DNA from: Cyanobacteria bacterium REEB446 | Lineage (GTDB): Bacteria; Cyanobacteriota; Vampirovibrionia; LMEP-6097 | NCBI GenBank assembly: GCA_018970325.1 | Contig: JAGWWP010000001.1 | Coordinates: 7,889 to 71,888, forward strand | DNA length: 64,000 nt | Direction: 5' to 3' | Part shown: in pieces, positions 30,801-55,124 of the stretch | Numbering within the stretch: the stretch's first letter is position 1 | Layout: each line of letters starts with the position of its first letter | Program-made: the position numbers and the translations under genes | The notes under the pieces: model-generated | The model's input: only the letters and a program-made list of their open reading frames with translations | Told to the model about the DNA's origin: nothing | Databases searched by the model: none

Positions 30801-31044
30801 AATAGATGAAGGACTCACTTGGTCTCAGACACAAACTTTAATAGATTTACTTGAAGACCCTGCGGGAGCAGCTCACGCCCCTAGTGGGGTAGTAGATCCA
30901 CAGCGTGCAAGAAAGCATGAGCTTTTAAAGGAAGCATTAGCATTTGGTGAGCTTCCTAACACTGTTAGTTTAGATTATCAGCCTCTTAATTATGCTGCAC
31001 TGATGACTCTTTTAAGCTCTGTTAAAGCAGATGGTTCTATTTAA
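27808..31044 (+). CDS. large hypothetical protein (1078 aa) with internal ~200-aa duplication
   Basis: [31 protein letters not shown]... (aa ~164) and [31 protein letters not shown]... (aa ~614) are ~75% identical over ~200 aa. Confidence 0.5.
28297..28900 (+). repeat. intragenic repeat copy A (~600 nt)
   Basis: ~88% nt identity to 29647-30250, offset exactly 1350 nt (in frame). Confidence 0.7.
29647..30250 (+). repeat. intragenic repeat copy B (~600 nt)
   Basis: See copy A. Confidence 0.7.
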
Positions 31045-32290: not shown

Positions 32291-32335
32291 ATAGTTTAGA
32301 TACTAAAGCCATATGAGAAAGCCGTCAAGAGAATT

Positions 32336-35429: not shown

Positions 35430-35747
35430 GGTAATGATAGAGAGCTTATTTACTTCTAGAACAAGAAACTCCCTTAGGAACATAGTTTCACCTCGCTATA
35501 TGGATCATGTATTCTCTCAGCTAAAAATTTATTATCAAGAGAAAGGCTCTCCGTTGAAGAGTTTTTTAGCGGACGATCAATAATTTTCTTGAAGTTGCTT
35601 TCCCCTTCTCCAAGGAGTATTTAAGTCTCACCCCCCAAGTCAAGCGTTTATTAAGTAGTCTAAGCAAAGAAATGACGAGAATACAGATTCAAGACGGCCT
35701 TGGATTAAAAGATAAAAAGAGTTTTGGGGGATTTATAAGATTCTTTA

Positions 35748-36826
35748 TTATTCATCTAAAGCCTCAATGCAAGAAAGCATTTGCCGAGGATTAGTGATAT
35801 AAGTATCTTGGCGTTTTTGCTCATCATTAGCAGCGTAAACTAATATCTTTCCATATTTTAAATCGGGGAAGGTTTTTTCAAAGTAATCTAAATTTTTTAA
35901 AAAATCCTTCGTAAAGGTTTCAGCAGATTTGATCTCTATAGGTAAATAACAGTTCCCGATATTATAAATGATATCAATCTCTTTCTGTGAGCCATCTCTA
36001 TAAAAACAAAGATTGTTTTTTTTGCCATTATTATAGCGGTGCTTAATCAATTCATTTATAACTAAATTTTCAAAAAGATTCCCTCTCAAAGGATGACTGT
36101 GAAGGTGTTTCTCTTTCTCTATATCTAATAAATAAGCTGCAAGGCCTGTATCGTAAAAATAGATCTTCGGTGATTTAATAAGCTGTTTTTTAATATTAGT
36201 AAAAAATGGTGGTAGCAGATAAATAATATAGCTAGCCTCTAATATACTGATCCACTCTCTAATAGTGTTGTGTGATACGCCTAGATCGTCTCCGAGGTTT
36301 TGATAGTTAAGAATCTGCCCGACTCGTCCAGCACAGAGTTTCAAAAATTTCTGGAATAAATGTAAATTTTTTAATTCGCTAATCTCTCTTACATCCCTCT
36401 CTACATAGGTTTTTATATAATCTCTCATGAAAGCCTCTACTGGAATGTCCTCCTCGTATAATTTAGGATAACTACCCTTAAAGATAAGCTCATCATAAGA
36501 AGGAGGTTCTTTATAATAACTACTAATTTCTTTTAGGCTGTATGGAAGTAAACTAATAATCGCGGTTCTGCCTGCTAAAGACTGGTTTATGGAGTCTAAA
36601 AGATTAAATTGCTGTGACCCTGTCAGGATAAACATTTCTTTGACTTTTTTTTCGTCGACTATTGCTTGAATATATGAAAGTAAAATTGGCACTCTTTGAA
36701 TTTCATCTAAGATTGCACCATCGGGGTATTGGTTTAAAAAGCTTTCTGGGTCATCCTGTGCGAAGCTTCTCGATTTAGGATGTTCTAAATTAACATAAGG
36801 CTTATTTTTAAAGATCTTTGTTAATC
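35748..36826 (-). pseudogene. N-terminally truncated DUF4143-type AAA+ ATPase (Walker A region missing)
   Basis: Open frame extends upstream of first Met to a TGA at ~36829 and encodes ...PESFLNQYPDGAILDEIQRVP... (Walker B region) but no P-loop. A short out-of-frame MLINKDL* sits at 36832. Confidence 0.45.
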
Positions 36827-39418: not shown

Positions 39419-39422
39419 AAAT

Positions 39423-41195
39423 TTAATCCTCTGAATCTTCTAGGTTATTTAAGACGTTAGCGGAATTGATTTGTAAGTACTGATAAGGGATTTGGCAGAT
39501 AATAGGTTTTTTCGTATACTTCTCTTTCTCAATAAGGCTTTTAATGCTTTTATTATCCACATAAATAGTGACAGCATAAATTAGTGCCTGATAGCCATTA
39601 TCACAGTCTTTTAGAATCTGCTCTAGCTTAGAGCGGCTTAAAGCATAATCGTGGTGCTTCAGTTTCTCTTTATCAGCACTGTATATTAGATAGAGTTTAT
39701 AGTTTTCGGTTTTACCGATGTAATGTGAAGCGTTTTCTGTTACGTTACTTAAAGCTTGATTAGTAGTGTGATAAAAAAGGTAGCTAGCAAGTGCCTCATA
39801 GCTAGGTAAGTCTTTTTCTAAAAATAGAGTATTTAAATGTAAAGCTTCTCCTAACTTTACTACGGTGAAGCTGCCGCCTAGACCTTCTTTAAGCTTAGGG
39901 TCTTTAGCTGTTGCTACACCTTCTATGCAGCGACGGATTCTTGCAGTGGTGATTTCGAAAATGTTTTTGAAGCCTTGCTTGGAGGCTTCTTCTGATTCTT
40001 CAGGCTGTTGTATTAGAATAAACTTCCTGCTTCCACCATCTTCTTTATTCATTTCTAGGACAGCGTGTCCAGTGGTTCCTGAGCCTGCGAAGAAGTCTAG
40101 GATTAGAAAATCTTTATCAAAGTCAGCTAAACTATTTAACAAGTGTTTGAGTAAATAAACAGGCTTAGAATAATTAAAGACAGGCTGTTCAAATATTTCT
40201 TTTAAATTTTCAGTTGCATTCTCGTAATTAAAAGATTTTTCACTGAGTATGGATCTTATTTTTGAGATTTTATTTTCCTCAAAGTAGATTTTTTCAAATA
40301 CGTCAAATCTTTTTTCACTCTTATTCTTAACAACTCTAACAATTAATTTGTTGATTTCTTTATTTACGGTATCTTTAGACCAACGCCATCTACCATCCTC
40401 ACCGTTAGATAGTTTAGGTAATATCTCTATAGCATTATTAGATTTTCTTTCTGTTGAAATTTCTGAGTTTTGTGCATCATAAAAAATAGGGAAATATTGA
40501 TTAGGAGCGTCACTCCTCTTTGAGTCAGCTCCACGTTTTCTGAGACCCCTTTCTTCATAAGCTTTTCCTTGATTATCAGATTTGTTATAATTTTCAATAC
40601 CTTTAATAAAACCAAATGGTAAAAGATTTGTTTTTAACTTACTGAAGCAAAGAATATATTCATGCTCAGATGCCGTGTGTTTCTTGGCTTGGTTACCACG
40701 GGGATTAGATCTTACCGTGAAAGTCTCTATATAATTATCTTCATCGAAAATTTCATCAAGCATGATTTTTATATGAAAAAATTCAACATCATTAATACTA
40801 ATAAAAATGACTCCGCTTTCTGAGAGCAGTTCCCTCGCTAATACCAAGCGTGGATACATCATACAAAGCCACTTATCATGCCTTTGTAGATCTTCTTTAC
40901 CGACCACGTTTCCAAGCCAGCTCTTTATCTGAGGGCTATTTAGATTATCGTTATAAACCCAATTCTCATTTCCAGTATTATATGGCGGGTCTATATAGAT
41001 GACATCAACTTTAGAAGCGAATTTGGGGATTAGAGATTTTAAAACTTCTATATTATCACCTTCGATAATCAAATTATCATCTAGACTGGGTTCTGGACTT
41101 AAGCTATCCTGCTGATCTATCTTCAGCTCCCTAACTGCTAGTGAGTGATGATAATTTATTACAGCGTCTTTTCCTTCCCAGATTAGTTCAGGCAT
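39423..41195 (-). CDS. mod: Type III R-M DNA methyltransferase, Mod subunit (beta-class N6A/N4C MTase)
   Basis: Motif [14 protein letters not shown] precedes motif [12 protein letters not shown] (beta-class order); mod-res gene order. Confidence 0.85.
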
Positions 41196-41289
41196 GATTT
41201 TCTCCCACGAATATGTAAGAGCCTAGGATTATGTCCTAGACTATGGTTTAGTTAATGATTACTTTAGTGAAAATACTAAAGTTTAAGGA

Positions 41290-41530
41290 AAGCTATTTAA
41301 TTTTTTATATCATTAAATAGCCGGGAGTTGATAAATCGCTACAGGACGACTACTGCAATCTTTAAGCCCGAAGGCTTTGGACATGCATTACAGTCTCCCG
41401 GCTTTTTTAAAACCGAGAGATATCGTTTTGACAGTCGGATATCTCTATCGACTGCCTGTAGTGAGGCTATCAAACCCCAAGGCTCTTTCCTTAAAAAGAA
41501 CCTCGTTATGAATTATAAACTAAGTTGAGC
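41290..41530. repeat. conserved ~240-bp structured element, copy 1 (candidate ncRNA / regulatory module)
   Basis: ~90% identical to 53822-54060 in the same orientation. GC hairpin agccgggag(41329-41337)...ctcccggc(41395-41402) followed by TTTTTT. Compensatory pairs between copies: ctacagg/cctgtag vs ttacaag/cttgtaa. Confidence 0.7.
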
Positions 41531-41683
41531 TGTTAGCTAAAAAGTTTATTGAACTAGAATCAATGAACGCCTCTTATATATTCGATTTGATAGGCTATGA
41601 ATTAGTATCAGCTGATCTTGAGTAAATCTTCACAGAAAACCTGAGCCATACAAAAGCTGAAGAGCAGTATAATTACAAAAAGA

Positions 41684-44347
41684 GTGTTAAAGAATGATGA
41701 AAAGCAAATAAAAATATTTGAGACTGGCTCTAAATGGCTAAGAGCTGATTTTCATCTACATACTCGTGCAGATAAAGAATTTATTTATACTAAAAACGAG
41801 AACGATTTTATAAGTGATTATATTAAAGGACTAAAAAAAGCTGATATTCGACTCGGCGTGATTACTAATCATAATAAATTTGACTTAAGTGAGTTTAAGG
41901 CACTAAGGAAGGCTGCTCGCAGAGAAGAAATTTGCTTGCTTCCTGGAGTAGAACTCTCTGTAAATGAAGGTAGTAGCGGGGTTCATGTACTAGTAATTTT
42001 TAATCCAGATGAATGGATAAAATCTGAGAGCGATTTAATTAATCCTTTCATTAGCTCAATGTTTCCTGGAAAAACTAAAATAGAATATGAAAACGAAAAT
42101 GCTAATTCGGATAAAAATCTTATAGATACCATTGAAGAGCTTGGTAAAAGGAATCTTGATTACTTCATAATTTTTGCTCATGTAGAAAATAACAAGGGAC
42201 TATGGAAAGAAGTCAATGGTGCTAAACTCACTCAATTTTTCACAGAAGAACGTTACACCGTTCTAAAAGAAAGATGTTTAGGATTTCAAAAAGTTCGCAC
42301 CCATGATGTTGCAGAGCATCCTTGTAGGCTTAAAGTTCAAAACCGGCTTGGTAATTGGTATCCAGCAGAACTAGAAGGTAGTGATTGTAAAAAAATAGAA
42401 GACATCGGTAAAGGCAAAACAACATATCTTAAATTAGGCAGCTTTAATTTTGAAGCGATAAAACATGCTCTATTAGATTATAAAAGCCGTGTCAGAGAGA
42501 GCCTTCCAGAAATCAAACATTCATACATCCAAAAAATCAGCTTCACAGAAGGAGTAGGGAGCTTATCCTCTCAGACAATAAATTTCTCAGCAGCTTTAAA
42601 TACTCTCATCGGCATTAGAGGCAGTGGTAAATCATCTCTCATAGAAGTTTTGCGCTATGCTTTAGATCTCTCTGTAGGAGATAATGATAAAAAATATAAA
42701 AATGATTTGATTGACAAAGCATTAGGCAGCTCAGGTAAGCTAATACTAAATCTAGTAGACTGTCATAATCAGGAATATGAAATTCATAAAATAAAAGATC
42801 AAAGCTCAGACATATATTTAAATGGCAATAAAATAAGTGGAATTTCTATAAAAGATACTATAATCCGTAATCCTATTTACTTTGGGCAAAAAGATTTAAC
42901 GGGATTATCATCAGAAAACACTCTAATTGAGAAATTCCTAGAAAGAGAATTAAGGGATATTCGCCTAAAAATTAATCAAAAATCTGATGAAGTAAAAACC
43001 TATCTAGATAAGCTTTCCAAAAGATCTAAGGCTGAAGAAGCTTATAAGGAGCAGCTAGGCATTATTACGAACAACACGCATAGATTAGAAACATATAAAA
43101 AATATAATTTAGAAGAGAAACTTAATGAAAGTCTAGAACTAGAGAAAGATTTAGATTACATAGAAAAAAGTAAATCTATAACAGAAGATTTTATAAATAA
43201 ATTCAATGTGTTCCTGAATACTTATACAGATACCTTAAAGAATTTTCCAATGCGTGAATCCAAGCACAATAAGGACTTAGTTAGCGAATCTATAAACAAA
43301 AATCAAGAATTTCAACAAATACTAGAGTCCTTAAAAATCTATTTAGGAAAGGCAGAAAAAATAAAAGAAGATTTCATTAATCTCTCAAACACTCTAGGAG
43401 CAAGAAAAGAATCTGCAAAAGAATCTTTTGCTGAGCTAGAAAGGAACTTAGCTTTAGAAATAGAAAACAGTTCAATCAAAAACATTAGTATAGATGATTT
43501 CAAAAAACTCACCGATGAACTCAGGAAAGCCCAAGGGATTGCAGATGAATTACTAAAAGTAATTAATGATGAAAAAAAACTCTCAGAAGCTTTTGAAAAT
43601 TCATTAAACGAATTAGAAAACCTTTGGTTAGAGGAATATAATCTAGCTAAAACGAAATTAAAAGAACTCTGTAAAGATACTAAATCCATATCCATAGAAT
43701 GTGAATACCAAAACAACAAAGAAGCTTTCCTAAACTTTATAAAGCAAATTTTTACTGGTAGCGGTAAGCAGCCTGTTACTTACAAAAAAATCAGTGAAGA
43801 GTTTAAGAATTTTATTGAATTGTATAGAACTTTAGAGAATAACTTTGAAGATAAAAAAAGCTTCTTTGGATCAAATCCAGAAGATTTTCGCAAACTCTTT
43901 AACGAAAAAATAAAAGAATTAATTACATATCAAACACCTAATAAGTACCTTATTAATTATCATGGTAAAAACTTATTACATCACTCTCTAGGACAGCGTG
44001 CATCAGCTTTAATAATATTTATTTTAACTCGTGGTGGTCACGACCTTATCGTGATTGATCAGCCAGAAGATGATTTAGATAATCAAACTATTTATGAAGA
44101 TGTTATTAAACTAATCCGTGAAATAAAACCTCAGGTACAGTTTATACTTGCCACTCATAATCCTAATATTCCAGTGCTTGCTGATGCAGAATTAGTACAG
44201 GTCTGCTCTTTTACTAATGAAAAGATAGAAATTAGCTCTGGCAGCATTGATGAACCAAATACACAGAAACAAATTATTAATATCATGGAAGGTGGCAAAG
44301 AAGCTTTTGATCGCAGAAAGGAAATATATAAAAAATGGAATCCCTAG
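41684..44347 (+). CDS. PHP phosphoesterase domain fused to SMC/ABC-type coiled-coil ATPase (Ppl-like defence protein)
   Basis: N-terminal PHP motifs ADFHLHT, ITNHN, GVELSV, HVLVIF; Walker A GIRGSGKSS; long coiled-coil; C-terminal signature/Walker B/His-loop ...LGQRASALIIF...LIVIDQPEDDLD...ATHNP. Confidence 0.65.
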   Translation: MLKNDEKQIKIFETGSKWLRADFHLHTRADKEFIYTKNENDFISDYIKGLKKADIRLGVITNHNKFDLSEFKALRKAARREEICLLPGVELSVNEGSSGVHVLVIFNPDEWIKSESDLINPFISSMFPGKTKIEYENENANSDKNLIDTIEELGKRNLDYFIIFAHVENNKGLWKEVNGAKLTQFFTEERYTVLKERCLGFQKVRTHDVAEHPCRLKVQNRLGNWYPAELEGSDCKKIEDIGKGKTTYLKLGSFNFEAIKHALLDYKSRVRESLPEIKHSYIQKISFTEGVGSLSSQTINFSAALNTLIGIRGSGKSSLIEVLRYALDLSVGDNDKKYKNDLIDKALGSSGKLILNLVDCHNQEYEIHKIKDQSSDIYLNGNKISGISIKDTIIRNPIYFGQKDLTGLSSENTLIEKFLERELRDIRLKINQKSDEVKTYLDKLSKRSKAEEAYKEQLGIITNNTHRLETYKKYNLEEKLNESLELEKDLDYIEKSKSITEDFINKFNVFLNTYTDTLKNFPMRESKHNKDLVSESINKNQEFQQILESLKIYLGKAEKIKEDFINLSNTLGARKESAKESFAELERNLALEIENSSIKNISIDDFKKLTDELRKAQGIADELLKVINDEKKLSEAFENSLNELENLWLEEYNLAKTKLKELCKDTKSISIECEYQNNKEAFLNFIKQIFTGSGKQPVTYKKISEEFKNFIELYRTLENNFEDKKSFFGSNPEDFRKLFNEKIKELITYQTPNKYLINYHGKNLLHHSLGQRASALIIFILTRGGHDLIVIDQPEDDLDNQTIYEDVIKLIREIKPQVQFILATHNPNIPVLADAELVQVCSFTNEKIEISSGSIDEPNTQKQIINIMEGGKEAFDRRKEIYKKWNP

Positions 44348-45498
44348 ATATAATATTAGCTACAGCTCGGGGAGAGGATTCCACTCACCAATTAAAAAGT
44401 AATTATTCTAATCTAGAGCAGCTTAGTGCAGATATGGTAGCGTTCAGCAATAGCCATGGAGGTAACATTCTTATTGGTATTCAAGAATTTAAAGATGAAG
44501 CCAATACCATAATCGGTCTTAGTGATCAGGAAATTAAAAATTTGAATCAAATGATTTCCAATGCAGCAAGTCAAGGAGTAATTCCAGCTATAAATCCCAA
44601 AACTTCTATTGTCGAAGTAAATAGCAAAATGGTACTAGTAATAGAAATTCCAGAAGGAATAAATAAGCCTTACCAAGATAAAAATGGTATCTTCTGGGTT
44701 AGAAGCGGCTCTGATAAACGTAAAGCTACGGCGAGAGAAGAATTACAAAGACTATTTCAGAATGCTGGTCTAGTACACGCAGATGAAGTTCCTGTAAGTG
44801 GTTCTAATATTTCTGACTTAGATTTAGATTACTTTAGTAAATTCTATGAAAAGCGTTTTGGCAGAAGCTTAGAAAATGAATTTCTCTCGCTAGATAAAAT
44901 CTTAGAAAATATGAATCTAGCTCAGAATCAGCAATTAAATCTAGCAGCGACCTTATTATTCAGCAAAAATCCAGACTTCCGCCTACCAGCATTTATTGTA
45001 AAAGCTCGTTCTTACTTAAGTGATACTACTAATGAGAATTCATATCTAGATAGTTTAGATATAAGAGGTAGATTAGCAGATGTTTTCCACAGATCAGTAA
45101 ATTTTATTTTGATGAATATTCATCATATTCAAGCTGGACAAAATGTCAACAGTGTAGGTGAATCAGAAATTCCTCGTATAGTACTAGAAGAGCTTATCGC
45201 AAATGCCTTAATGCACAGAGACTACTTTATCTCAGCACCTATTAGAATTTTTGTTTTTCCTAGTCGTATCGAAATTATCAGTCCAGGACACCTACCTAAT
45301 AACCTAAGCATTGAGAATATTAAAGCTGGTAACTCAAATATGCGAAACCCGGTCTTAGCTTCTTTCGCTGTCAATTTATTACCATATCAAGGGATCGGAA
45401 CAGGTATCCTAAGGGCTTTGAGTAACTATCCAGATATTGACTTTGAGAATGATCGTAATAATAACCAATTCAAATGTACTATTCACAGGAGTCAGTAA
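44335..45498 (+). CDS. AlbA_2 (Schlafen-like) + HATPase_c_4 domain protein (putative nucleic-acid-binding/ATP-binding regulator)
   Basis: N-terminal AlbA_2-like region (FSNSHGGNILIGI), C-terminal divergent GHKL motif ELIANALMHRDY; overlaps upstream gene by 13 nt. Confidence 0.6.
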   Translation: MESLDIILATARGEDSTHQLKSNYSNLEQLSADMVAFSNSHGGNILIGIQEFKDEANTIIGLSDQEIKNLNQMISNAASQGVIPAINPKTSIVEVNSKMVLVIEIPEGINKPYQDKNGIFWVRSGSDKRKATAREELQRLFQNAGLVHADEVPVSGSNISDLDLDYFSKFYEKRFGRSLENEFLSLDKILENMNLAQNQQLNLAATLLFSKNPDFRLPAFIVKARSYLSDTTNENSYLDSLDIRGRLADVFHRSVNFILMNIHHIQAGQNVNSVGESEIPRIVLEELIANALMHRDYFISAPIRIFVFPSRIEIISPGHLPNNLSIENIKAGNSNMRNPVLASFAVNLLPYQGIGTGILRALSNYPDIDFENDRNNNQFKCTIHRSQ

Positions 45499-45539
45499 AA
45501 TAATTTAAGATGTCTTTAAAAAAGCTACACGCTCAGAAT

Positions 45540-48500
45540 TCATTTTAAATCTTCTATTAATTTAGCCAATGCTATTCGATCAATCCACTCAATATTATGT
45601 TCTTGACTCATGCGACTTAATTCAGCCTGGTGACAATCTTTGTAGGTGCCATTCGTGATAAACATCGCTCTATCAATATTATAATAACTACTGTAGCTCT
45701 TTAAAACTTCGGGAAAACTCATTAATTTATTACGATCTCCGTAATCTTTACCCCCGTGTACATGTTTAACCTGTGCTGCGATTTGTTTGCCATTTTCATC
45801 ATCGAAAATAAAATCAACTCCAATATCTCTAGGTTTTTTGACCACATAACCTTTCTTTTCAAAAATACGCCTAATAATTTTCTCAAACTCTAGTCCCTGT
45901 TGGCTTTTATTTTGATATTTAATAGAATCTATCTCATCTAAAGAAGGAATTTTACTATCTGTATCTGTCTTGGGGTCTAGTTCTTTACTCATTTCTTTTA
46001 AGATGTCTCCTTCTGAAATATTTTGTGTATAACTCAAATCAAAGAGATTTTTTCTAGCTGTACGCTTTATTTCTAGCCTATCGTGAAGATTTTTCTCAAA
46101 AGTATGCTCTGCTACGAAATAGTACACATAAACATTTTTCTTCTGTCCCGTTCTATAAGCTCTACATGTAGCTTGATCTTCGACTGCGGGATTCCACCAA
46201 CGAGTTAGATGCAGCACATGATTAGCTTCTTGGAGGTTTAAACCCATACCAGCACAGCGTGGTGATAGAACTAAAGCTGAAAAACCATTTTCTGCCTGAA
46301 ATTTCTTTAAATTATCTTTTTTATCTTCCTCTGAAAGTTTACTGTTAATAGGAGCTAGACTTAAATTAAAATGATCGTTAATGAAGTCCTGGACTGCTTC
46401 TTGATAATGATTATATTCACAGAAAACTAAAGCTTTTTCATTTTTTTTCTTTATGTCTTTTAGTAAGTCTTTTAATTTACCTAAACGATCATTTTCAGTA
46501 AACCATTCTTGGAAATGAGGTTTAGTATAAATCTTGCCATTAGCAAGAAACCTATGTATGGAAGATTGTTTAATTAAACCTACTTTTTTCAGAGCAGGAT
46601 ATTTGCTTTTTAAAATACTATGTATGTGTTCCTCAGATTCTTCTTCAAGTTTAAAGGAAACGTTCGTTGAAACTAGTTCAGGGAGATCTTTCTTTAATTC
46701 AGGATCTTCTTTTAGCCGACCATTGGCATAGCCTTTAGTGAAATTGCCAAATTCTAGGCTTGTAATCAGATCTTTAAAACAACGTTCTCTTTCGCTATCT
46801 GGTAAATCTTGGTTAAAAAAAGCTTGATATTTTTTCCTAAAATCTTTTAATGATCCTAAAAGACCTGCATGAGAGCTATCCATAATATTCCAAAGCTCAG
46901 ACATATCATTTTCGATAGGTGTTCCACTCATGAGAATTTTAAAAGTAACATTAGTCGCTATCGCTTTTAATACAGTAGATACCTGCGTTTTAGCTGACTT
47001 AGCTTTTTGTACTTCGTCGCAGAGTAATAATGACCATGGAATTTGAGCGAAAGAATGCTGATAATTAACCATGGTGTCATAGGTGATAATGATGCATTTA
47101 TGTTTTAAAAGTAAATTTTTATCTAATAAAGGATAGCCTAGTTTCCCTTCAGGGACAGCTTTAGCACTGCTATCTCGGAAATATTTTTTAGGAGAAATCG
47201 ATTTAGCAGCTGTTTGAGAACCATGTAAAATAGTAAAATCAAATTCTTTACTATCTATAAAAAAATTTTTAGCTTGCTCCTCGAAGTTATCTAAAAGTAT
47301 AGGTGGAACTACTATTAAAATAGGCTTAAAATCTGTTTCGGGGAAACGCTTTTGCCAAATAGATCTCATTAGTAGTTTAATGAAACACATGGTCTGAAAA
47401 GTCTTACCTAAGCCCATATCATCAGCTAGAAGCACACCTGGATACGAAGCCATAAAGCAGTTTACCAACCATTCTATACATTGTTTTTGATAAGGGAAAA
47501 TATTAATCCCATCTTTCGTATCGATTAAACTCCAGTCTAAATGGGTGTTTAACTCATCAGTACTTTGTCTTTCATCATATTCTCGAATTTCGGCATTAGT
47601 CTGAATAATCAGTGCTTTATCATTCTCTGCTTTAGGAATGTTTTCAGAGTTAGTTTCTGCTTTTAGGCTTTTTTGAAATAATTTACTACCTTTATCTAAG
47701 CAGCTATTTATATAGTGAAAAGACTCTTGGCGCGTTATATCTAGTTCGACCTCATCACCTGTTTTGCTATCTTTTAGAAGATAGCTGCGTTGTGATTCTT
47801 TCGCTGCTAATTTAAGGTCTTCTTTAGCAATATTTAAATCTTCTTGATTGAGAAAAACGCTTTTATTTTCCTCTCCTTGATTTGAGTTGCCTAGATTAAT
47901 TTTTATAAAATTATCATCCTCTAAAATGACAGCATTTTGCTTATTATCTGCTTCTATAAGCTCATCCATGCCATCGAAAATTGTTTTCTGTTGAACTTTA
48001 CCAAACTGTCCTGGGATGACTATCGGTTTACCGATTCCTATTACTCTAGGACCGTATTGGCTAACATCTAGATTAAAAATATTATAGAACTCTGGAAGCT
48101 CTTTTAGAATTGAGCTATCAGAGTGATATTTTAATTTCTCAATTATTTCATCACTCGCCTTATGGTGATAATCGGTCTTTAATTTAAGGAGAGCCTTTTT
48201 AGTAGAGGGATTTAAGCCTAAATCTATATTCTCACCATTCGCTGTCCTAATTTTTATAGTATTGGACTGGGTATCCCAGATTCTTAAGCCTCTTTGTATC
48301 GCTTCTAAAGCTTTTTCTGTGCTTTCATATTTTAAAACCTCGCCTAACTCTTCATTAAAGGGTACTAAAGATGCTAAGTCTTCACTGCTACTAACTTCTA
48401 GAGATTTAGTGGCATATAAGTCGAACTTATTATAATGAAATATTTTTATGTCACTCAGTCTTAAATCATTTAGTAAAAGTGAATTATCACTATCATGCTT

Positions 48501-49193
48501 AGTAATCCATTCATGCACTTTCTGTAAAGCACTTATGATAACTGGATTATTCGCTGACCAGAGTTCCTTTTGATTTATATAACTATCAAAGAGTTGGTAA
48601 ATCCAGTATGGTAATACTGTAAGAGACTGCTTTTTAGCCTTAAGATTTAAATCTAAAATTAAGCCATTTTCTTTAACTTTATCTGTAATATTTTGAAAGC
48701 CATTTTCAGTTTTCATTGAAAGCCATAGCTCTACTTCACTACCGCTAAATTCAGCGGTTACTTTAAATTCTTTATTAGTGTTTAAGACAGGAAAATAATC
48801 TAAGATTTTTCTATCCTCATCTAAAGCTATTTTCAAGCTTAGAGTACCTTCACCTTCGCTATCTTCCTCCTCTTCCTCAGAGCTAAAATTAATTCCTAAA
48901 GTCTCAGCAGTTTCTTTATCTAAAGAGCTTTTCTGTAAATTAATTAGAAAATTATTTTTTAAATTCTCGTAATTTATAAAATAATCGCCATTATCATCAA
49001 TGTTGAAAAAATTTTTATTGTTTAAAACATTATAGATACTCAGATCGTCATGGAATGCCTTTTCTAGACTTAATCTTAGACCATGAAACACGGGCTTTAA
49101 TCTGAAGCGAGTCTTTAAAAAGCTTTTCCCTGTAGTTTTATTAGAACTCTTTTTTTTGAATAGATCTAAAAAGGCATTTAATGAACTAGGCAT
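45540..49193 (-). CDS. zorD: ZorD-like: SNF2-family helicase with C-terminal Mrr-type restriction endonuclease domain
   Basis: SNF2_N LLADDMGLGKTFQTM, DEVQ box LLCDEVQKAK, helicase C motifs, C-terminal Mrr_cat-like GLEFEKIIRRIF...IGVDFIFDD...QVKH; last gene of zorABCD-like operon. Confidence 0.6.
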   Translation of the reverse strand: MPSSLNAFLDLFKKKSSNKTTGKSFLKTRFRLKPVFHGLRLSLEKAFHDDLSIYNVLNNKNFFNIDDNGDYFINYENLKNNFLINLQKSSLDKETAETLGINFSSEEEEEDSEGEGTLSLKIALDEDRKILDYFPVLNTNKEFKVTAEFSGSEVELWLSMKTENGFQNITDKVKENGLILDLNLKAKKQSLTVLPYWIYQLFDSYINQKELWSANNPVIISALQKVHEWITKHDSDNSLLLNDLRLSDIKIFHYNKFDLYATKSLEVSSSEDLASLVPFNEELGEVLKYESTEKALEAIQRGLRIWDTQSNTIKIRTANGENIDLGLNPSTKKALLKLKTDYHHKASDEIIEKLKYHSDSSILKELPEFYNIFNLDVSQYGPRVIGIGKPIVIPGQFGKVQQKTIFDGMDELIEADNKQNAVILEDDNFIKINLGNSNQGEENKSVFLNQEDLNIAKEDLKLAAKESQRSYLLKDSKTGDEVELDITRQESFHYINSCLDKGSKLFQKSLKAETNSENIPKAENDKALIIQTNAEIREYDERQSTDELNTHLDWSLIDTKDGINIFPYQKQCIEWLVNCFMASYPGVLLADDMGLGKTFQTMCFIKLLMRSIWQKRFPETDFKPILIVVPPILLDNFEEQAKNFFIDSKEFDFTILHGSQTAAKSISPKKYFRDSSAKAVPEGKLGYPLLDKNLLLKHKCIIITYDTMVNYQHSFAQIPWSLLLCDEVQKAKSAKTQVSTVLKAIATNVTFKILMSGTPIENDMSELWNIMDSSHAGLLGSLKDFRKKYQAFFNQDLPDSERERCFKDLITSLEFGNFTKGYANGRLKEDPELKKDLPELVSTNVSFKLEEESEEHIHSILKSKYPALKKVGLIKQSSIHRFLANGKIYTKPHFQEWFTENDRLGKLKDLLKDIKKKNEKALVFCEYNHYQEAVQDFINDHFNLSLAPINSKLSEEDKKDNLKKFQAENGFSALVLSPRCAGMGLNLQEANHVLHLTRWWNPAVEDQATCRAYRTGQKKNVYVYYFVAEHTFEKNLHDRLEIKRTARKNLFDLSYTQNISEGDILKEMSKELDPKTDTDSKIPSLDEIDSIKYQNKSQQGLEFEKIIRRIFEKKGYVVKKPRDIGVDFIFDDENGKQIAAQVKHVHGGKDYGDRNKLMSFPEVLKSYSSYYNIDRAMFITNGTYKDCHQAELSRMSQEHNIEWIDRIALAKLIEDLK

Positions 49194-50754
49194 AATTAAT
49201 TTCTTCTCCAGTCTTAGGGTTTCTAGGGGTTAGCTCATATAGCTCTTTCATCATGCACGTAACGGACTCATTCCAAAAGCGATTACTACGACTAAAACGC
49301 CAGTGAGGAGATCTCCTGAATGATGCTTGATCTTTTTTTGCATCGTAAACTATATCTGTAAAAATGAAATAATCTCTAAGGCGAATTGGTACACTGATAT
49401 TTTTACCGAAATAAGTGTCATAAAACCTTAGAAGGATCTTCTCATTCTCAGAAAGAGAAGGTTTGTTTTTTATAGAGTTAATATTATAGACATATGCAGC
49501 AGTACCAGTGTCAACTGTTTCGAAAATCAATATTTGATCTATTTTGAGAACGAAAGATGTTAAAGAAGAGTGATTTAAAATTGGCTCTATAAATAAATCA
49601 ATATCTTTTTTTTCAGTTAATTTTTTAAATTGATTTATTTTATATCGATCAGGTAAAAAAATTCTAAAATCATCAGCATAGTATAAATATCTTTGCCAGC
49701 ACTCTTTACGCCCATGTTTATCTGGAGAGTCTTTAAAGGCAAACTCAAAGAATAAATTAAAGTCTTGTTCATTAAACCAATAGCGAATTTTTTTATATAC
49801 CCCTTCGTCACTTTCCTGTAGGATCTGCCACTCAGATTTATTAATACGAGGATCACCTAGTTTATTTTTTGTAAAAGACTTTATTTCGCTCTTTTCTCGT
49901 TCATTAATATTCCACTCTATTGTTTTAAATAGCTTAATAAAGCGCTCACAGCCTTTTCTGGAACGTAGATGAGTAAAAGCATGTAAAATATTTTTAAATA
50001 GATCGAAATTAGAGCGATTAGCCAAGTATTTTTCTAAAAGATAATGGAAGTATTTAGATAGAAGATGATCTATAAAAGAATCATTAGGAAAGAATTTCAC
50101 ATAAAATTTATTAGAGGCTATTTCTAAAATGCTTTCTGATAAATTTTCATCATTAATACTCTGATTTTCTAATAAAATAAATATTTTTTCTGCCTCTGCC
50201 TGAAAGTAGACTTGTTCACTTTTTTCTTTTCTATAAGTTTCAAAATCAAGTAGCAGTGAGTGTTTTTCAAACAGATTATTAATCTGTATTTTAGAATTAC
50301 TAAGTTGGAAAAACCAATCCTCTAAAAGCTCTAACCAAAAATCATCTTTAAATTCATAGTCCTCATTTAGAATTTGAAAACGCCAAATATAGTCATTAAG
50401 CCATCTTAATAAGATACGCTGCGGTTCCTGTCTTTTAATTAAATTTCTGAATTCTAATTCATCTTCAAGACCAGACATAGAGAGACCTAGACGAACTATG
50501 GTTTTTTTAATCTTTATATCATCAGGGTTTTTAAGATATTTTCCCCATTCAGTTTTTAGATCTCCAATCTTAGTTAAGCTAATAGTGTTAAGAGACTTAG
50601 TCTTTAGTTTTCTCAAGCGAGTAATTAATGGATTGAAATGTTTAATTACGTAAGTATTATGGTGATTGAAAAATTCAGAGCTAAAGTGGGAATACTCATT
50701 TGAAGCATCTAAGAGCTTGCTTAGAGATTCTTTGATTTTTAAAACTACACTCAT
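49186..50754 (-). CDS. zorC: ZorC-like protein (unknown function)
   Basis: Size (522 aa) and position between MotB-like and SNF2 genes with overlapping start/stop codons; no motif verified. Confidence 0.4.
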   Translation of the reverse strand: MSVVLKIKESLSKLLDASNEYSHFSSEFFNHHNTYVIKHFNPLITRLRKLKTKSLNTISLTKIGDLKTEWGKYLKNPDDIKIKKTIVRLGLSMSGLEDELEFRNLIKRQEPQRILLRWLNDYIWRFQILNEDYEFKDDFWLELLEDWFFQLSNSKIQINNLFEKHSLLLDFETYRKEKSEQVYFQAEAEKIFILLENQSINDENLSESILEIASNKFYVKFFPNDSFIDHLLSKYFHYLLEKYLANRSNFDLFKNILHAFTHLRSRKGCERFIKLFKTIEWNINEREKSEIKSFTKNKLGDPRINKSEWQILQESDEGVYKKIRYWFNEQDFNLFFEFAFKDSPDKHGRKECWQRYLYYADDFRIFLPDRYKINQFKKLTEKKDIDLFIEPILNHSSLTSFVLKIDQILIFETVDTGTAAYVYNINSIKNKPSLSENEKILLRFYDTYFGKNISVPIRLRDYFIFTDIVYDAKKDQASFRRSPHWRFSRSNRFWNESVTCMMKELYELTPRNPKTGEEINYA

Positions 50755-51479
50755 TTGTTTAAATCCTTGAGATTAGACTGTAGAGCAGCACGCTGTTCAT
50801 TAGATTTTACTCTTATCGTGATTTCTACTCTGCGACTAGCATCACGATTGATATTTAAGAAATTAGGATCATTTTTTATAGAGTTAATATTTAATAACAC
50901 TGAATTCCAGTCCGCACTATTCATGAGTTTAGTACCATATTTTAAATCCTGTTCTCCACGCCCAATTAAATATAGCCACGCCAAGAGAGTTTCATATCTT
51001 GCTTGAGTGCTTGGATTTTTTTGATAATGACTTAAAATATAAGTGCCGATACTTAAAGAACGATTTTGGCTTAAATCTAAATTATTATTATCGTCTCCTA
51101 TATCATCAGTAAATCCTTCTATGTAAACACCTTGAATATAATCTCTATATTTCTCATTTCCCATCAGTATTTCAATAACACGATTAATAAAAATCTGATT
51201 TAAAAACTTTTCACAGTCTTGATTACAGGAATCGCTAGCTGTAAGAAATTTTAACTTATCTTCTTTAACTTCTATAGTACAGGCTAAAGGATCATCTTTC
51301 TTAATGACACAAGATAGATCATCGTTTTTTAGTTCTTTATTAATCTTTTTACTAATCTCTTCAATTTTCGTTATACTGCCTCTAGCGTTATTCTGAGTGA
51401 GAGCTAGCATCAGCATAATAAACACAACCGCTAAGGAGGTCATTAAATCAGTCATTGAGGATTCTAATTTAAGTGCCAT
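50751..51479 (-). CDS. zorB: ZorB-like: MotB/OmpA-family protein (N-terminal TM anchor + OmpA-like peptidoglycan-binding domain)
   Basis: TM helix LMTSLAVVFIMLMLAL; OmpA-like motif VYIEGFTDDIGDDNNNLDLSQNRSLSIGTYIL. Confidence 0.6.
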   Translation of the reverse strand: MALKLESSMTDLMTSLAVVFIMLMLALTQNNARGSITKIEEISKKINKELKNDDLSCVIKKDDPLACTIEVKEDKLKFLTASDSCNQDCEKFLNQIFINRVIEILMGNEKYRDYIQGVYIEGFTDDIGDDNNNLDLSQNRSLSIGTYILSHYQKNPSTQARYETLLAWLYLIGRGEQDLKYGTKLMNSADWNSVLLNINSIKNDPNFLNINRDASRRVEITIRVKSNEQRAALQSNLKDLNK

Positions 51480-51494
51480 AAATTAAAACTTTTA

Positions 51495-53765
51495 TTATTT
51501 GGCACTCCACTGGCTACTTGTAATAGAATCTTCAAGATTTGAAATCAAAGACTGTAAATGACTAATTGCTTCTGTGTGCTGTTTGCTAAAGTCATTGAAA
51601 TACCCTTGCCCAGCATCTTTGATTTTATTAATAGATGAGGCCATTGATTCACCAGCTTTACCAAACTCATTAGTTATATCTAGTGTTAATTTATTAATTG
51701 CTTGGTAATCCTTATGTAATTGATCACTAGTACTTTGATGAGTTTTTAATAATTCCTTCTGCTCTTGCATGGCTGTTCTTAATAGATTTAGCTGCTCTTT
51801 GAAGTCCACATCCTTTTGCTCACTAGCTATGGTGATTTTATTTTGGAGTTCTATGAGCTTATCCATGGAATTCTGGATTTTTATAGATTCCTCTCTTAGT
51901 GCACTTACTCGCTGTAAATATTCACTTAATTCGGTAAGTGAGCTTCTTTGCGTTGCTGTCAGTTCATTTTGTTTATTAATGAAATGTGAGAACTCATTAT
52001 TTAATAAATTAGTTAACTTATCGAAAGCATAGTTTAATTGAGCTTGAGCGTTATTTAACTGCTCAGGCATAGATAGTGCTTGTCTACTTAAAATATCAAT
52101 ATTATTTTTTAACTCATGTAAAACGCTCTCTAGATTATCTTTTAAGCTGCTCATGCTACTAGTGAAGCTATGCTCCAAGTTTTTAATCTGAGATTCGTGT
52201 ACACTAGTGTTCTCTTGCTGCATTCTGTTATGATCTTCCTGAAAGCTTCTTGAAGAATTTTCAAAGATATTCTTCATCTCGAATAATAATTCACTACTCA
52301 ACTTAGAATTAGCTTCGCTAAGCTCAAAAATTTTATTAGTAATAAATTGCATACCTTCAGTGTGTTTACGTTGCATTTCATCTTGTTGAGTTACCAGATT
52401 AGCTGTTAATTCCTGATTTCTCAGCATAATATTCTCTAAAAGCTGATTTAGATTAGAACCTTGCTGATTATGTATCTCTTCAAAAAGATTTTTTACTAGA
52501 TCTGACATCTCACGCTGTGAATCAGAGAGACTTAATTTCATTTCAGCTGTAGATTTAGACATATCACCCAGTAAAGATTCCATAATCTCAGGAAGCTTTT
52601 CCATAGTGGTTTTCAAAGCCTCTATATCACTATTTAAACCTTTGGTAAGACTCTCTCTAAGTTCCTGTCCTATAGTACCTAAATGCTCAGACATACCATT
52701 CAAACCTGCCGCACTAAAATCTTTCATTGAATCGGAGACTTTAAACATCTCATCTTTTATATCTGTCACTAAATTTTTAACTCCAGATGTCTCATTTTTA
52801 ATATCTGAAACTGCATTTTTTACACTTTCTTCAATTGATTTCTCTATATTCTCCAAAATACTGCCAGTACCTTTAGTTTTATGAAAATAGCTTTCTATCT
52901 GACCAGGTATTTGTTTAATATCTTTCTGCATCACTATGAGTAAATCCTGAGTGGTTAATCGCCTGAAATTTCTATTCAACTCATAGATAATGCTAGACAG
53001 AGTTTCATGCATTTCATGCTCTTTATTTTTAATAGTGATCTCTGCATTAATGGCTAAAATCAAACCTACTATACTGGTAATAAATTTTGCAGATAGTGCA
53101 TTAATAAAATCATCTAAGCCTGTTATATCCCCCCCTCCTGCTTCCTGTCTGACTACACTCAAACCAGCAGTAAGAGCGATAAAAGTAAAAAGCAGTCCAG
53201 TACTGGTAAAGAAGCTAGGATAATGCTTCAGTCTAAATACATAAGGACTTACTATAGTATTAACTTTAAAAAAATCTTCAGCTTGATAGACATTCATTAG
53301 CTGTTCTTTATACTCATGCACGCCCTCAGAAAACTCTTTCCATGCATGTTCTAGACTAATATACATAGAACTTTGAAGATTTGTCTCAGAATATGGTTCG
53401 TCAAAGTATTTATTGATTTTCGCTTTAAGTTCATAAGAACTATGCGATTCTTTTATGAGCTGATAAAAAGCTTTTAAATCCTTTATCCCAGATTCTGTTT
53501 CAGCTAAATTTGCTTGATAGGGATTACTATTTAAATTTAAAACTTTTATTTTATTTTTACATGCAAACCAGATGGAAGCCAAAAAGCCATAAATGAGTAT
53601 AAGCACTGTAATCTTAATACCAAAAATACCAGAGCTGGAATCTTGATTACCATTCCACCAATTTATAAACTGACTTGACCACGTCCGAGGATCACACAGG
53701 AACAGCGTTAAATCAAGATTTAAAATTTTAAAAATATTAAACTGTGGTAACAATGTAGAACTCAT
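51495..53765 (-). CDS. zorA: ZorA-like: MotA/ExbB-type membrane protein with ~500-aa C-terminal helical/coiled-coil tail
   Basis: TM helices (ILIYGFLASIWFAC; GLLFTFIALTAGLSVV; ITSIVGLILAINAEITI) resembling MotA/ExbB core, then long heptad-rich tail; 15 bp upstream of MotB-like gene. Confidence 0.55.
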   Translation of the reverse strand: MSSTLLPQFNIFKILNLDLTLFLCDPRTWSSQFINWWNGNQDSSSGIFGIKITVLILIYGFLASIWFACKNKIKVLNLNSNPYQANLAETESGIKDLKAFYQLIKESHSSYELKAKINKYFDEPYSETNLQSSMYISLEHAWKEFSEGVHEYKEQLMNVYQAEDFFKVNTIVSPYVFRLKHYPSFFTSTGLLFTFIALTAGLSVVRQEAGGGDITGLDDFINALSAKFITSIVGLILAINAEITIKNKEHEMHETLSSIIYELNRNFRRLTTQDLLIVMQKDIKQIPGQIESYFHKTKGTGSILENIEKSIEESVKNAVSDIKNETSGVKNLVTDIKDEMFKVSDSMKDFSAAGLNGMSEHLGTIGQELRESLTKGLNSDIEALKTTMEKLPEIMESLLGDMSKSTAEMKLSLSDSQREMSDLVKNLFEEIHNQQGSNLNQLLENIMLRNQELTANLVTQQDEMQRKHTEGMQFITNKIFELSEANSKLSSELLFEMKNIFENSSRSFQEDHNRMQQENTSVHESQIKNLEHSFTSSMSSLKDNLESVLHELKNNIDILSRQALSMPEQLNNAQAQLNYAFDKLTNLLNNEFSHFINKQNELTATQRSSLTELSEYLQRVSALREESIKIQNSMDKLIELQNKITIASEQKDVDFKEQLNLLRTAMQEQKELLKTHQSTSDQLHKDYQAINKLTLDITNEFGKAGESMASSINKIKDAGQGYFNDFSKQHTEAISHLQSLISNLEDSITSSQWSAK

Positions 53766-53777
53766 CCACTCTCTCCG

Positions 53778-53805
53778 TTATTAACTATCTAATGTTTTAG
53801 TGCAA
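53778..53805 (-). promoter_or_regulatory. putative sigma70-type promoter for zorA operon
   Basis: Minus strand reads TTGCAC-16 nt-TAATAA, then GGAGAGAG RBS before the ATG; weak. Confidence 0.2.
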
Positions 53806-53821
53806 GCACTAAGATTGAAAA

Positions 53822-54060
53822 AAAGCTATTTAGAAATTTATATATTATTAAATAGCCGGGAGTTCATAGACCGTTACAAGACGACTACTGCAATCTTTAA
53901 GCCCTAAGGCTTTGGACATGCATTACAGTCTCCCGGCTTTTTTAAAGCCAGGAGATATCGTTTTTACAGTCGGATATCTCTATCGACTGCTTGTAAAGAG
54001 GCTATGAAACCCCAAGGTTCTTTTAAGGAAAGAACCTCGTTATGAATTATAAACTAAGTG
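53822..54060. repeat. conserved ~240-bp structured element, copy 2
   Basis: See copy 1; lies between zorA start and the stop codon of the degenerate Fic gene. Confidence 0.7.
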
Positions 54061-54071
54061 AGAGATCGCTA

Positions 54072-55124
54072 TCACTGAAAATAATTTCTTACAGCAAATT
54101 CAAACTGTTCAATGAAAAGCTCTTTGAGATACAGAAGGTTATTTCTTTCATAAAAAAGTATCATCGCTTTTTTATATTCAGTCTCATCAATGCTTCTGTA
54201 GGAGAGAGGGCAGTAATTATAAGCCAGTAGTAAGGCATTGCTAGTAATGCGACTAGTTCTTTTATTACCGTCCTCAAAAGCTTGGATATAGGAAATAAGT
54301 GCAGAGCAGGTTAAAGCTTTAGTGAATGGCTCTTTAATTTTATTTACAGTCTCAGATAGGCTTTTAATCGAATCACTAATCTGGAAAACATTATCTAAAG
54401 GCTTATAATTCGTTCCTGTAATTCCGACCAAACTATTTCTGAAATTAGGATTAATGTATAAGCCCTTAGTTAGCATGCTGTGCAATTCAATAATTTTATT
54501 CGGCGTAATTTTTTTAAAGTAAGCAGGTTTTTCTAAGATGTACTCTAGAGCGTGTTTATGATTCAGTAACATTTTTGCTTCTTCTTTGCTATGACCTTTA
54601 GCTTCGATGCCGACTTTAAAAAGAGTTTCTGTGTCTAATAATGAATAAGTATTCCCCTCTATCTGTGAGGATTTCCATGAAAGATCTATAGTTAATCTTT
54701 CGAATTCTTTTCTTATAATAGTTTTACTGTGTTGTTTTAAATTACTTCTATAAGTATTATTTAATTGCTCAATGTGTTCTAACTCACTGCTAGAGAAGAT
54801 TTTCTCAGATACTTTATCTATGAGTTTGAAAATATTAAAATTAAAACTCTCTTCTATAAATCGTTTATCAGGAATAACTGAGAAGTATTGTTTGATATTG
54901 ATTGGCTGAATCAGTTTATATAGTGGTGAAAGTTTGTAAACAGTATTCTTACCTTCTCCATATCTGATTATTAAATCAAGTTTTAATAAATAGGTTAAAT
55001 CTCTGTTTAAGGTAACTCTAGATATAGATTCATTTAATAATCTCTCTATGCTTGCTATATCAAGTTCAGAATATTTTAAAAATAATTCTAAGATTGTTTC
55101 CTGCCGAGGATTTAACTTAAACAT
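54072..55124 (-). CDS. Fic-family protein with N-terminal wHTH and degenerate active-site motif
   Basis: Fic core with motif position reading YIQAFEDGNKRTSR instead of HPFx(D/E)GNGRxxR (His, Pro and second Gly replaced). Confidence 0.55.
   Translation of the reverse strand: MFKLNPRQETILELFLKYSELDIASIERLLNESISRVTLNRDLTYLLKLDLIIRYGEGKNTVYKLSPLYKLIQPINIKQYFSVIPDKRFIEESFNFNIFKLIDKVSEKIFSSSELEHIEQLNNTYRSNLKQHSKTIIRKEFERLTIDLSWKSSQIEGNTYSLLDTETLFKVGIEAKGHSKEEAKMLLNHKHALEYILEKPAYFKKITPNKIIELHSMLTKGLYINPNFRNSLVGITGTNYKPLDNVFQISDSIKSLSETVNKIKEPFTKALTCSALISYIQAFEDGNKRTSRITSNALLLAYNYCPLSYRSIDETEYKKAMILFYERNNLLYLKELFIEQFEFAVRNYFQ

Follow-up and report, generated by a model that had tools for sequence, protein, structure and literature searches.

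We analysed a 64,000-nucleotide (nt) stretch of the genome of Cyanobacteria bacterium REEB446, an uncultured member of the Vampirovibrionia (contig JAGWWP010000001.1 of assembly GCA_018970325.1, positions 7,889 to 71,888; hereafter the window), in which two homologous copies of a ~240-bp element precede two defence operons on the minus strand: a Type III restriction-modification (R-M) operon, mod-res, and a Type I Zorya operon, zorABCD. Taken together, our results indicate that the element is probably a promoter with a structured 5′ leader of ~270-310 nt, read from the minus strand, that controls the downstream defence operon, most likely by conditional transcription termination. We are fairly confident that it is a cis-acting leader; the specific termination switch that we outline below is plausible but could well be wrong. 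The shared cis-regulatory minus-strand leader, which a first-pass annotation of this DNA had listed among several possible roles, is backed by strand asymmetry, covariation and a constant linkage to the downstream gene across ~20 loci.

When the window was compared with itself by blastn, positions 41290-41528 and 53822-54062 aligned as direct repeats over 241 nt with 89.6% identity (E 2e-88), bearing out the ~90% identity and shared orientation reported at first pass. An ungapped repeat search returned 41299-41488 and 53834-54023 (91%), and pairwise alignment placed sharp edges at ~41290/53822 and ~41528/54062, with fainter similarity continuing to ~41264/53797, that is, through a hairpin that we designate P10. 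The centres of the two copies are identical over 62 nt. No third copy was detected in the window by blastn, nhmmer or a covariance model. On the minus strand, the copy at 41290-41528 forms the main part of the mod-res leader ('mod-type') and is 95-99% identical to the mod-adjacent copies of loci L001, L006, L011 and L012, while the copy at 53822-54062 forms the main part of the zorABCD leader ('zorA-type') and is 89-100% identical to the zorA-adjacent copies of L014, L016-L020, L024 and L025. The annotated distance of ~100 bp to the minus-strand start codons was correct (mod ATG at 41195, zorA ATG at 53765), and all of the hairpins listed in that annotation are present: agccgggag...ctcccggc (41320-41328/41395-41402), aagccCGAAggctt, which is helix P7, and ggctcttt...aaagaacc, which is P1.

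To determine the secondary structure, 16 distinct copies were aligned in the minus orientation. The RNAalifold consensus contains 82 pairs in ten helices and agrees with the minimum-free-energy (MFE) folds of single sequences. Folded independently, the minus strand reaches -78.0 kcal/mol with 82 pairs, versus -47.1 kcal/mol with 62 pairs for the plus strand; measured against dinucleotide shuffles, the two copies have z-scores of -6.6 and -6.8 when the minus strand is folded and of -3.4 and -5.5 when the plus strand is folded. Pairing is possible in 97.9% of the paired cells of the alignment, as opposed to 35-46% in slid registers, and 17 of the 82 pairs show double changes, compared with 5.2 +/- 1.5 in column shuffles (none of 500 reached 17) and at most five in slid registers. 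The compensatory exchange noted at first pass (ctacagg/cctgtag versus ttacaag/cttgtaa) was confirmed as part of P2, a 19-bp long-range helix, one arm of which occurs in five compensated versions (CUACAGG/CCUGUAG, UUACAAG/CUUGUAA, CUAAAAG/CUUUUAG, CUAAUAG/CUAUUAG and CUAUAG/CUAUAG). P1 contains four covarying pairs, and in a core alignment that includes the divergent locus L028 double changes affect 13 of 58 pairs, with two pairs showing three pair types.

The predicted pairs comprise 114 G.U cells and only 6 A.C cells. This asymmetry settles the strand as minus and excludes both a plus-strand reading and a DNA cruciform. Judged from these patterns of sequence change, the element is predicted to be a structured RNA made from the minus strand; of the initial proposal of 'RNA or DNA cruciform', the RNA part is supported by the covariation and the strand asymmetry, and the cruciform part falls with the latter. 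A plus-strand small RNA (sRNA) ending in GCCGGGAG..CTCCCGGC followed by T6 was likewise rejected, since its comparative fold is much poorer and its pairs would be A.C mismatches. The 'GC hairpin plus TTTTTT', if taken for a plus-strand terminator, is read on the wrong strand: in the RNA, the T-run corresponds to an A-rich loop and the 3′ arm of P5, and GCCGGGAG/CTCCCGGC constitute an alternative pairing, X2:X3, to which we return below.

The two leaders share a common layout. In both, a TATAAT -10 box lies 9 nt inside the 5′ edge of conservation. In the mod leader, this box (41512-41517) predicts a transcription start site at ~41505; in the zorA leader, the box (54046-54051) has GTGATA 18 nt upstream, overlapping the stop codon of the neighbouring Fic gene, and scores 10/12 matches in a promoter scan. 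The 5′ hairpin P1, defined by the consensus fold and covariation, occupies 41478-41505 (mod) and 54013-54039 (zorA). It is followed by a core of ~160 nt, P2-P7 (41323-41477 and 53858-54012), in which P2 closes a junction holding P3, P4, P5 (formed by the segments X1 and X2) and P6/P7. X1, X2 and X3 are located at 41409-41419, 41395-41405 and 41319-41327 in the mod leader and at 53944-53954, 53930-53940 and 53854-53862 in the zorA leader. Downstream of the core, an AT-rich hairpin, P8 (GGCUAUUUAA...UUAAAUAGCU in the mod leader), with a U-rich tract makes up a putative weak terminator (41286-41322, hairpin 41322-41291, -10.2 kcal/mol; in the zorA leader, with a U7 tract, 53819-53857, hairpin 53857-53824, -8.5 kcal/mol). 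Beyond P8 stands the hairpin P10, CUUUAGU...ACUAAAG in the mod leader (41264-41279) and CUUAGUG...CACUAAG in the zorA leader (53797-53812), which covaries and reads CUCGGUG/UACUGGG in L027. Since P10 lies 3′ of P8 and covaries, transcripts must continue past P8. The remainder of the mod 5′ untranslated region (UTR; 41196-41263) contains a mod-type-specific hairpin, CUAGGA..UCCUAG (41223-41239), and the ribosome-binding site (RBS) GGGAG (41202-41206); that of zorA (53766-53796) contains the RBS GGAGAGAG (53769-53776). The predicted 5′ UTRs are ~310 nt (mod) and ~274 nt (zorA) long.

The leaders also contain a 23-codon open reading frame (ORF), MSKAFGLKDCSSRPVAIYQLPAI, at 41385-41314 and 53920-53849 on the minus strand, with X2 (GGGAG) as a possible Shine-Dalgarno sequence and the stop codon in the 5′ arm of P8. 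The frame is open in all copies of the main family, is broken by indels in L015 and L023, and lacks an AUG in L028. As it is conserved within the main sub-family only, the ORF is probably fortuitous, and we rejected leader-peptide attenuation through it.

To place the element in a wider context, we collected loci from metagenome-assembled genomes (MAGs) of the Vampirovibrionia/Caenarcaniphilales and from metagenomes, which yielded ~20 related loci with the element. An exact-protein look-up with the product of a flanking AAA_14 gene led to several environmental metagenome assemblies that contain this island (look-ups of Fic and NuoL returned no record), a 22-nt invariant stretch of the element matched eight contigs of species-representative MAGs, a degenerate 24-mer independently matched six metagenome contigs, and additional loci were reached through ZorA homologues. 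The MAG contigs are labelled Vampirovibrionia, Caenarcaniphilales/Caenarcanales, 'Proteobacteria' and 'Gammaproteobacteria', the latter two labels probably resulting from loose binning. A covariance model of the core, R1 (161 positions, 58 pairs), scores ~189 bits in the sense and ~21 bits in the antisense direction (188.8 for the mod leader, 189.6 for the zorA leader). Both R1 and nhmmer recovered all copies, and among all collected loci the covariance model revealed no copies of greater divergence.

Gene context was assigned by tblastn mapping of the window proteins onto these loci. In every locus with the element, it lies directly 5′ of, and is co-oriented with, the first gene of an operon. 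This gene is zorA in L013, L014, L016-L020, L022 and L024-L027, where ZorA is 55-91% identical to that of the window, and Type III mod in L001, L006, L011 and L012. Other genes follow the three divergent homologues, which are ~76-78% identical in the core. In L023 the element precedes a 234-amino-acid (aa) ORF with no Pfam or PADLOC match, the divergent neighbour being a confident bSEFIR protein (E = 3e-109); in L028 it precedes a TM2/zinc-ribbon gene and a gene for a 245-aa partner, adjoining a Zorya operon and pointing away from it; and in L015 the downstream ORF runs off the locus, with an SNF2-like helicase as the divergent neighbour. The leader sub-type tracks the downstream operon: mod-adjacent copies are 95-99% identical to the mod leader of the window and ~86% to its zorA leader, and for zorA-adjacent copies the relation is reversed. 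The opposite flank is variable, with Fic (window, L016, L019), Ppl (window, L001, L012, L022), SNase, bSEFIR or SNF2 genes and, in ten loci, a small nucleotidyltransferase gene with or without HEPN. The operons also occur separately: L025 carries Zorya with its leader and without mod-res, Ppl or AlbA_2, and L011 carries mod, the leader and then zorD, again without Ppl or AlbA_2. We rejected the possibility that the element is the 3′ UTR of the upstream gene, since that gene differs or sits on the other strand in most loci. A leader common to all Zorya operons was rejected as well: none is present upstream of the more distant zorA of L030 (ZorA 37% identical), and none occurs in the 168 nt, all that is present, upstream of zorA in L029 (ZorA 42% identical).

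Two observations concern the genes around these leaders. The genes behind the divergent leaders (L028:72-1455 and L023:1970-2674, both on the minus strand, and L015 from ~1600) lie near Zorya, OLD-like, bSEFIR or SNF2 genes and show no homology to one another; by position, they are candidate new defence genes. A 110-aa nucleotidyltransferase (NTP_transf_2/MNT) recurs as the divergent neighbour upstream of both mod-type and zorA-type leaders (L006:8279-8952, L011, L014, L017-L020, L024 and L025:1176-1508; accompanied by HEPN in L006 and L018), a position taken in the window, which lacks it, by Ppl or Fic.

The same survey bears on the suggestion that the element is a miniature inverted-repeat transposable element (MITE) or another dispersed intergenic repeat with an outward promoter. 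Its compact, highly structured form, its sharp edges and the -10 box at one end would all suit such a repeat. However, a scan of species-representative genomes found at most two copies per MAG, as in the window, the aligned edges carry no terminal inverted repeats or target-site duplications, and the plasmid, phage and viral collections contained no match; an origin from such replicons was rejected on the same ground. Moreover, the orientation is fixed relative to the downstream gene, and every copy found stands at the 5′ end of an operon that runs in its own direction. We thus consider a MITE very improbable. Of the readings weighed here, it was the minus-strand leader that stood, while the plus-strand terminator, the MITE and the attachment (att) site did not.

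The divergent homologues in L015, L023 and L028 are informative about the region between the core and the start codon. Core identity between the sub-families amounts to 72-78%, and 29 of the 45 unpaired core columns do not vary, whereas the downstream expression platform is not alignable. In the main sub-family the platform consists of the AT-rich P8 with its U-tract, followed by P10; in L015, L023 and L028, a canonical, GC-containing terminator of 8-12 bp with a U-run comes after P8, and ~12-35 nt further on lie the RBS and ATG. This leaves no room for a promoter between terminator and RBS, and expression of the downstream gene would therefore be possible only by read-through from the leader.

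These features also weigh on the possibility that the element is an independent sRNA gene of ~215-225 nt, extending from P1 to P8 and its U-tract, the product of which would work in trans or serve as a decoy or an antitoxin, with defence operons as mere neighbours. An own -10 box, the hairpin and U-tract that end the conserved block and the canonical terminator at the end of the divergent sub-family would all be expected of such a gene, and the weakly similar sRNA-Xcc1 (see below) has been reported to act in trans upstream of toxin genes. Nevertheless, the downstream genes of L015, L023 and L028 depend on read-through, P10 covaries beyond the U-tract, and the orientation and distance to the ATG are invariant over five downstream gene sets, which a free-standing sRNA would not need. 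While we deem an independent sRNA gene distinctly unlikely, terminated riboswitch leaders can also act in trans, and a trans activity would be compatible with a cis-acting leader.

Next, we examined the alternative pairings within the core. X2 (AAAGCCGGGAG) is invariant and pairs with X1 (CUCYYGGYUUU) as P5 in the MFE fold, and it is equally complementary to X3 (CUCCCGGCU); X2:X3 is the 'GC hairpin' of the first-pass annotation. X3, in turn, closes the core with a 5′ GGGG and contributes GGCU to P8, so that X1:X2, X2:X3 and X3:P8 form a chain of mutually exclusive pairings. In addition, an interleaved helix, GAGAUAUC:GAUAUCUC, stands in H-type pseudoknot order with P3 and overlaps both P4 and X1, the latter at its first three bases. 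The alternative helices (alignment columns 96-103:119-126 and 142-150:219-227) can pair in all 16 copies, with one compensatory pair each. X1 varies by wobble while X2 and X3 are invariant, as dual pairing constraints predict. In the divergent sub-family the X1 sequence equals that of X3, and in L015 columns 131, 143, 226 and 259 change together such that X1:X2, X2:X3 and X3:P8 all remain intact.

A 1:2, 2:3, 3:4 chain of this kind is found in transcription attenuators, and we propose conditional termination by analogy. In the default OFF state, X1:X2 would be formed, X3 would close the core and feed P8 or the terminator, and transcription would stop. In the ON state, an input would free X2 to pair with X3, undermining the terminator and allowing transcription to go on; in the divergent sub-family, X2 could alternatively pair with the 5′ arm of the terminator. 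The input, which may be a small molecule, a protein or an RNA, would likely act at GAGAUAUC:GAUAUCUC, probably by stabilising the pseudoknot of P3 with this alternative helix (P3/alt1).

Several points weigh against this model. P8 is weak as a terminator, being AT-rich with a 10-16-nt loop and only -8.5 to -10.2 kcal/mol, and a consensus terminator scan called it in neither leader. In the main sub-family, forcing the X2:X3 pairing costs 12-16 kcal/mol relative to the MFE structure, and each alternative helix rests on one compensatory event in related sequences from few lineages. The independent lineages number ~7 and the effective sequence number of the covariance model is 0.74; many copies are 99-100% identical as a result of recent recombination. 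At the promoter, the scan found no -35 match for the mod leader, and another promoter-like site (41255-41228) is present downstream of the element, ahead of the mod ATG. The downstream genes are not metabolic and their context gives no clue to a ligand. Finally, the start sites, 3′ ends and read-through are all things that we infer from the DNA.

An alternative to a switch is a processive antitermination RNA comparable to HK022 put or Bacillus EAR, in which case the leader would modify RNA polymerase (RNAP) to ignore terminators and Rho along long, AT-rich, exchanged operons, with no ligand required. HK022 put and EAR are known from mosaic, horizontally exchanged operons, a setting that the operons studied here match. 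Like the put and EAR RNAs, which act in cis on the polymerase, the element is a structured RNA that opens long operons at their very 5′ end, its strong conserved structure includes pseudoknot-compatible helices, and in L015, L023 and L028 terminators follow directly downstream. However, the Rfam search gave no similarity to put or EAR, the element is larger than these RNAs and also precedes short units such as the 234-aa ORF of L023, and the conserved exclusive pairings X1:X2, X2:X3 and X3:P8 are not required by such a mechanism and suggest a switch rather than a static RNAP-binding fold. Furthermore, a strong terminator would serve no purpose immediately behind an antiterminator that is always active. 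Antitermination is therefore unlikely in our view, and we retain conditional termination as the working model.

The first-pass observation that the element belongs to no recognised RNA family holds. A search of the window against Rfam 15 (4227 families) gave no match at gathering thresholds, and sensitive mode returned only sub-threshold, chance-level matches. The best of these, on the same strand, was sRNA-Xcc1 (RF02221), with 26.8 bits in the window and 29.0 bits in L021 against a gathering score of 53; L015, L023 and L028 gave no match to this family at E <= 5. The two RNAs have in common a GCCGGG...CCCGGC closing stem round two inner hairpins, which in the element is the X2:X3 alternative fold. 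However, the match covers 93 of ~270 nt, the second inner hairpin is not conserved in the element, and sRNA-Xcc1 is a proteobacterial RNA, unlike the element, which is found in Vampirovibrionia. Membership was rejected, as the match is sub-threshold and confined to the main sub-family. sRNA-Xcc1 has been reported as a trans-acting sRNA, and its reported sites are on mobile elements, where it precedes symE toxin genes of integron cassettes and an ORF6N gene of APSE phages; we regard the shared toxin/accessory-gene context as an analogy and not as evidence of homology.

By kind, the element would be a terminator-type cis-regulatory leader, and by family it is new. Similar to terminator/antiterminator riboswitches and attenuators (T-box, purine, cyclic di-GMP (c-di-GMP)), it is a predicted co-oriented 5′ UTR with a covarying multi-helix core and invariant junction nucleotides, its platform varies by sub-family and includes a canonical terminator directly before the RBS, and it has predicted exclusive pairings of the 1:2, 2:3, 3:4 type. 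Unlike these leaders, it matches no Rfam family, it precedes anti-phage rather than metabolic or transport genes, and its main sub-family has merely a weak, AT-rich terminator hairpin. Among regulators of defence systems, the WYL-domain repressors BrxR and CapW offer a parallel in that a shared regulatory module stands before different systems and is exchanged with them; BrxR and CapW are DNA-binding proteins encoded beside the system, whereas the element is a cis-encoded RNA without an associated regulator gene. Full-text literature searches returned no paper in which a riboswitch or structured leader is linked to Zorya or to any other defence system, and a shared RNA leader for unrelated anti-phage systems appears to be an undescribed setting.

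We then compared the window with related islands by sliding identity. Against four Zorya loci (L014, L020, L024, L025), identity is 35-55% ahead of the leader and climbs to 99-100% precisely at its 5′ edge. Within the Zorya operon and its leader (45540-54062), identity falls to 50-80% at ~53000 (L014, L020), ~53700 (L024) or ~52300 (L025), and in L025 it returns to ~99% across zorD. The fixed jump at the 5′ edge combined with the strain-specific decay suggests that promoter, leader and operon constitute one module and that the operon bodies are recombination mosaics. A hybrid leader, mod-type in its 5′ half and zorA-type in its 3′ half, was found in L021:611-876 and L022:4177-4442 (OGWG01007939 and OGWJ01000720), where it sits between zorA and Ppl and has two mismatches in P2. 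This hybrid could mark the junction at which recombination between the leaders gave rise to a circle or a tandem duplication, or it could equally be an assembly chimera across the 62-nt identical centre. The Logan contigs L004, L005, L008, L009 and L027, which are independent assemblies, all end at one point inside the element, at ~41400 in window coordinates, an assembly signature of the long stretch that is identical between the copies.

Homologous recombination between the two copies may occur, and the repeats could be viewed as a recombination substrate, that is, as att-like DNA borders or homology arms for the excision, duplication or exchange of the 12.3-kb block between them. The gene content first described for this block (Ppl, AlbA_2/HATPase_c_4 and ZorD-C-B-A) is correct, as is the direct-repeat geometry. 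A hybrid between zorA and Ppl is the junction expected of an excised circle or a tandem duplication, strains differ in the cargo that lies between the copies and next to them, and the leader 5′ edge is the fixed junction in all comparisons. Yet none of the six genes of the block encodes a recombinase or integrase, the copies are 90% identical over 240 bp rather than short exact duplications, a single copy is present where there is one operon only (L025), and the RNA-level selection evident from the G.U asymmetry and covariation is unexplained by a DNA site; the hybrid, moreover, may be chimeric. We therefore consider a border role improbable, and any recombination is most readily taken as a side effect of the presence of two such leaders in one island. 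The Ppl/Zorya block is bracketed simply because two operons of this defence island run in the same direction and each has its own copy of the leader.

How Zorya and comparable defence systems become activated is, to our knowledge, poorly understood, and the defence-system regulators that we know of are proteins. A covarying leader common to Zorya, Type III R-M and other island genes would represent the first case in which a cis-RNA module controls such systems. The leader makes testable which signal licenses costly immunity genes, provides an orphan RNA family for ligand hunting and a positional marker for finding defence genes, and explains the repeat architecture of the island without a mobile cassette. 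We also put forward, as a more speculative idea that we would not yet favour, that the element represents a new riboswitch-like class of RNA sensors placing several unrelated anti-phage systems under one RNA-sensed signal; these would be Zorya, Type III R-M and the uncharacterised TM2/zinc-ribbon and membrane-protein genes near bSEFIR and OLD-like genes. If so, the signal could be, for example, an alarm molecule derived from a nucleotide or a cue of infection or stress, the leaders would define an RNA-based regulon for bacterial immunity, and the genes of L023, L028 and L015 would become candidate defence genes on this ground too.

The remaining features of the window concern the surroundings of the two leaders. 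Downstream of the first, the Type III R-M operon (36926-41195, minus strand, 4.3 kb) consists of mod (39423-41195) and res (36926-39418); downstream of the second, zorA-B-C-D spans 45540-53765 on the minus strand (8.2 kb). Between the operons, a Ppl-like ATPase gene (41684-44347) and an AlbA_2/HATPase_c_4 gene (44335-45498) form a plus-strand pair (41684-45498) without a leader copy, a variable cargo that is absent from L011 and L025. The Fic gene (54072-55124, minus strand) lies beyond the zorA leader, with its stop codon 10 nt before the start of the repeat copy. No tRNA or transfer-messenger RNA (tmRNA) gene was found in the window, and insertion into such a gene was accordingly rejected.

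The island lies between ffh/ftsZ (31037-33886) and a NuoL-like gene (55264) and looks like a defence hotspot. Its left side is also variable: compared with L001 and L006-L009, AAA_14/DUF4143 paralogues at 34203-36692 are kept in some cases and truncated or exchanged for other genes in others, and only some strains have Abi_2, AAA_15 and a 454-aa gene. The mod gene of the window (39423-41195) can be aligned with that of L001 only at residues 1-186 (77%) and 341-590 (89%), and the mod of L012 shows 64% overall identity, against 91-94% for res in the comparison with L001 and L012; judging from the sequences, this mid-gene divergence fits target-recognition domain swapping. Finally, an ORF at 27808-31044 (1078 aa) contains internal direct repeats at 28278-30199, with a period of ~1344 nt, in three families of 78-84% identity. 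In L001-L003 the gene in the equivalent place is shorter, with 876 codons' worth of protein (876 aa), which, together with the internal repeats, suggests copy-number variation of a ~448-aa repeated domain.

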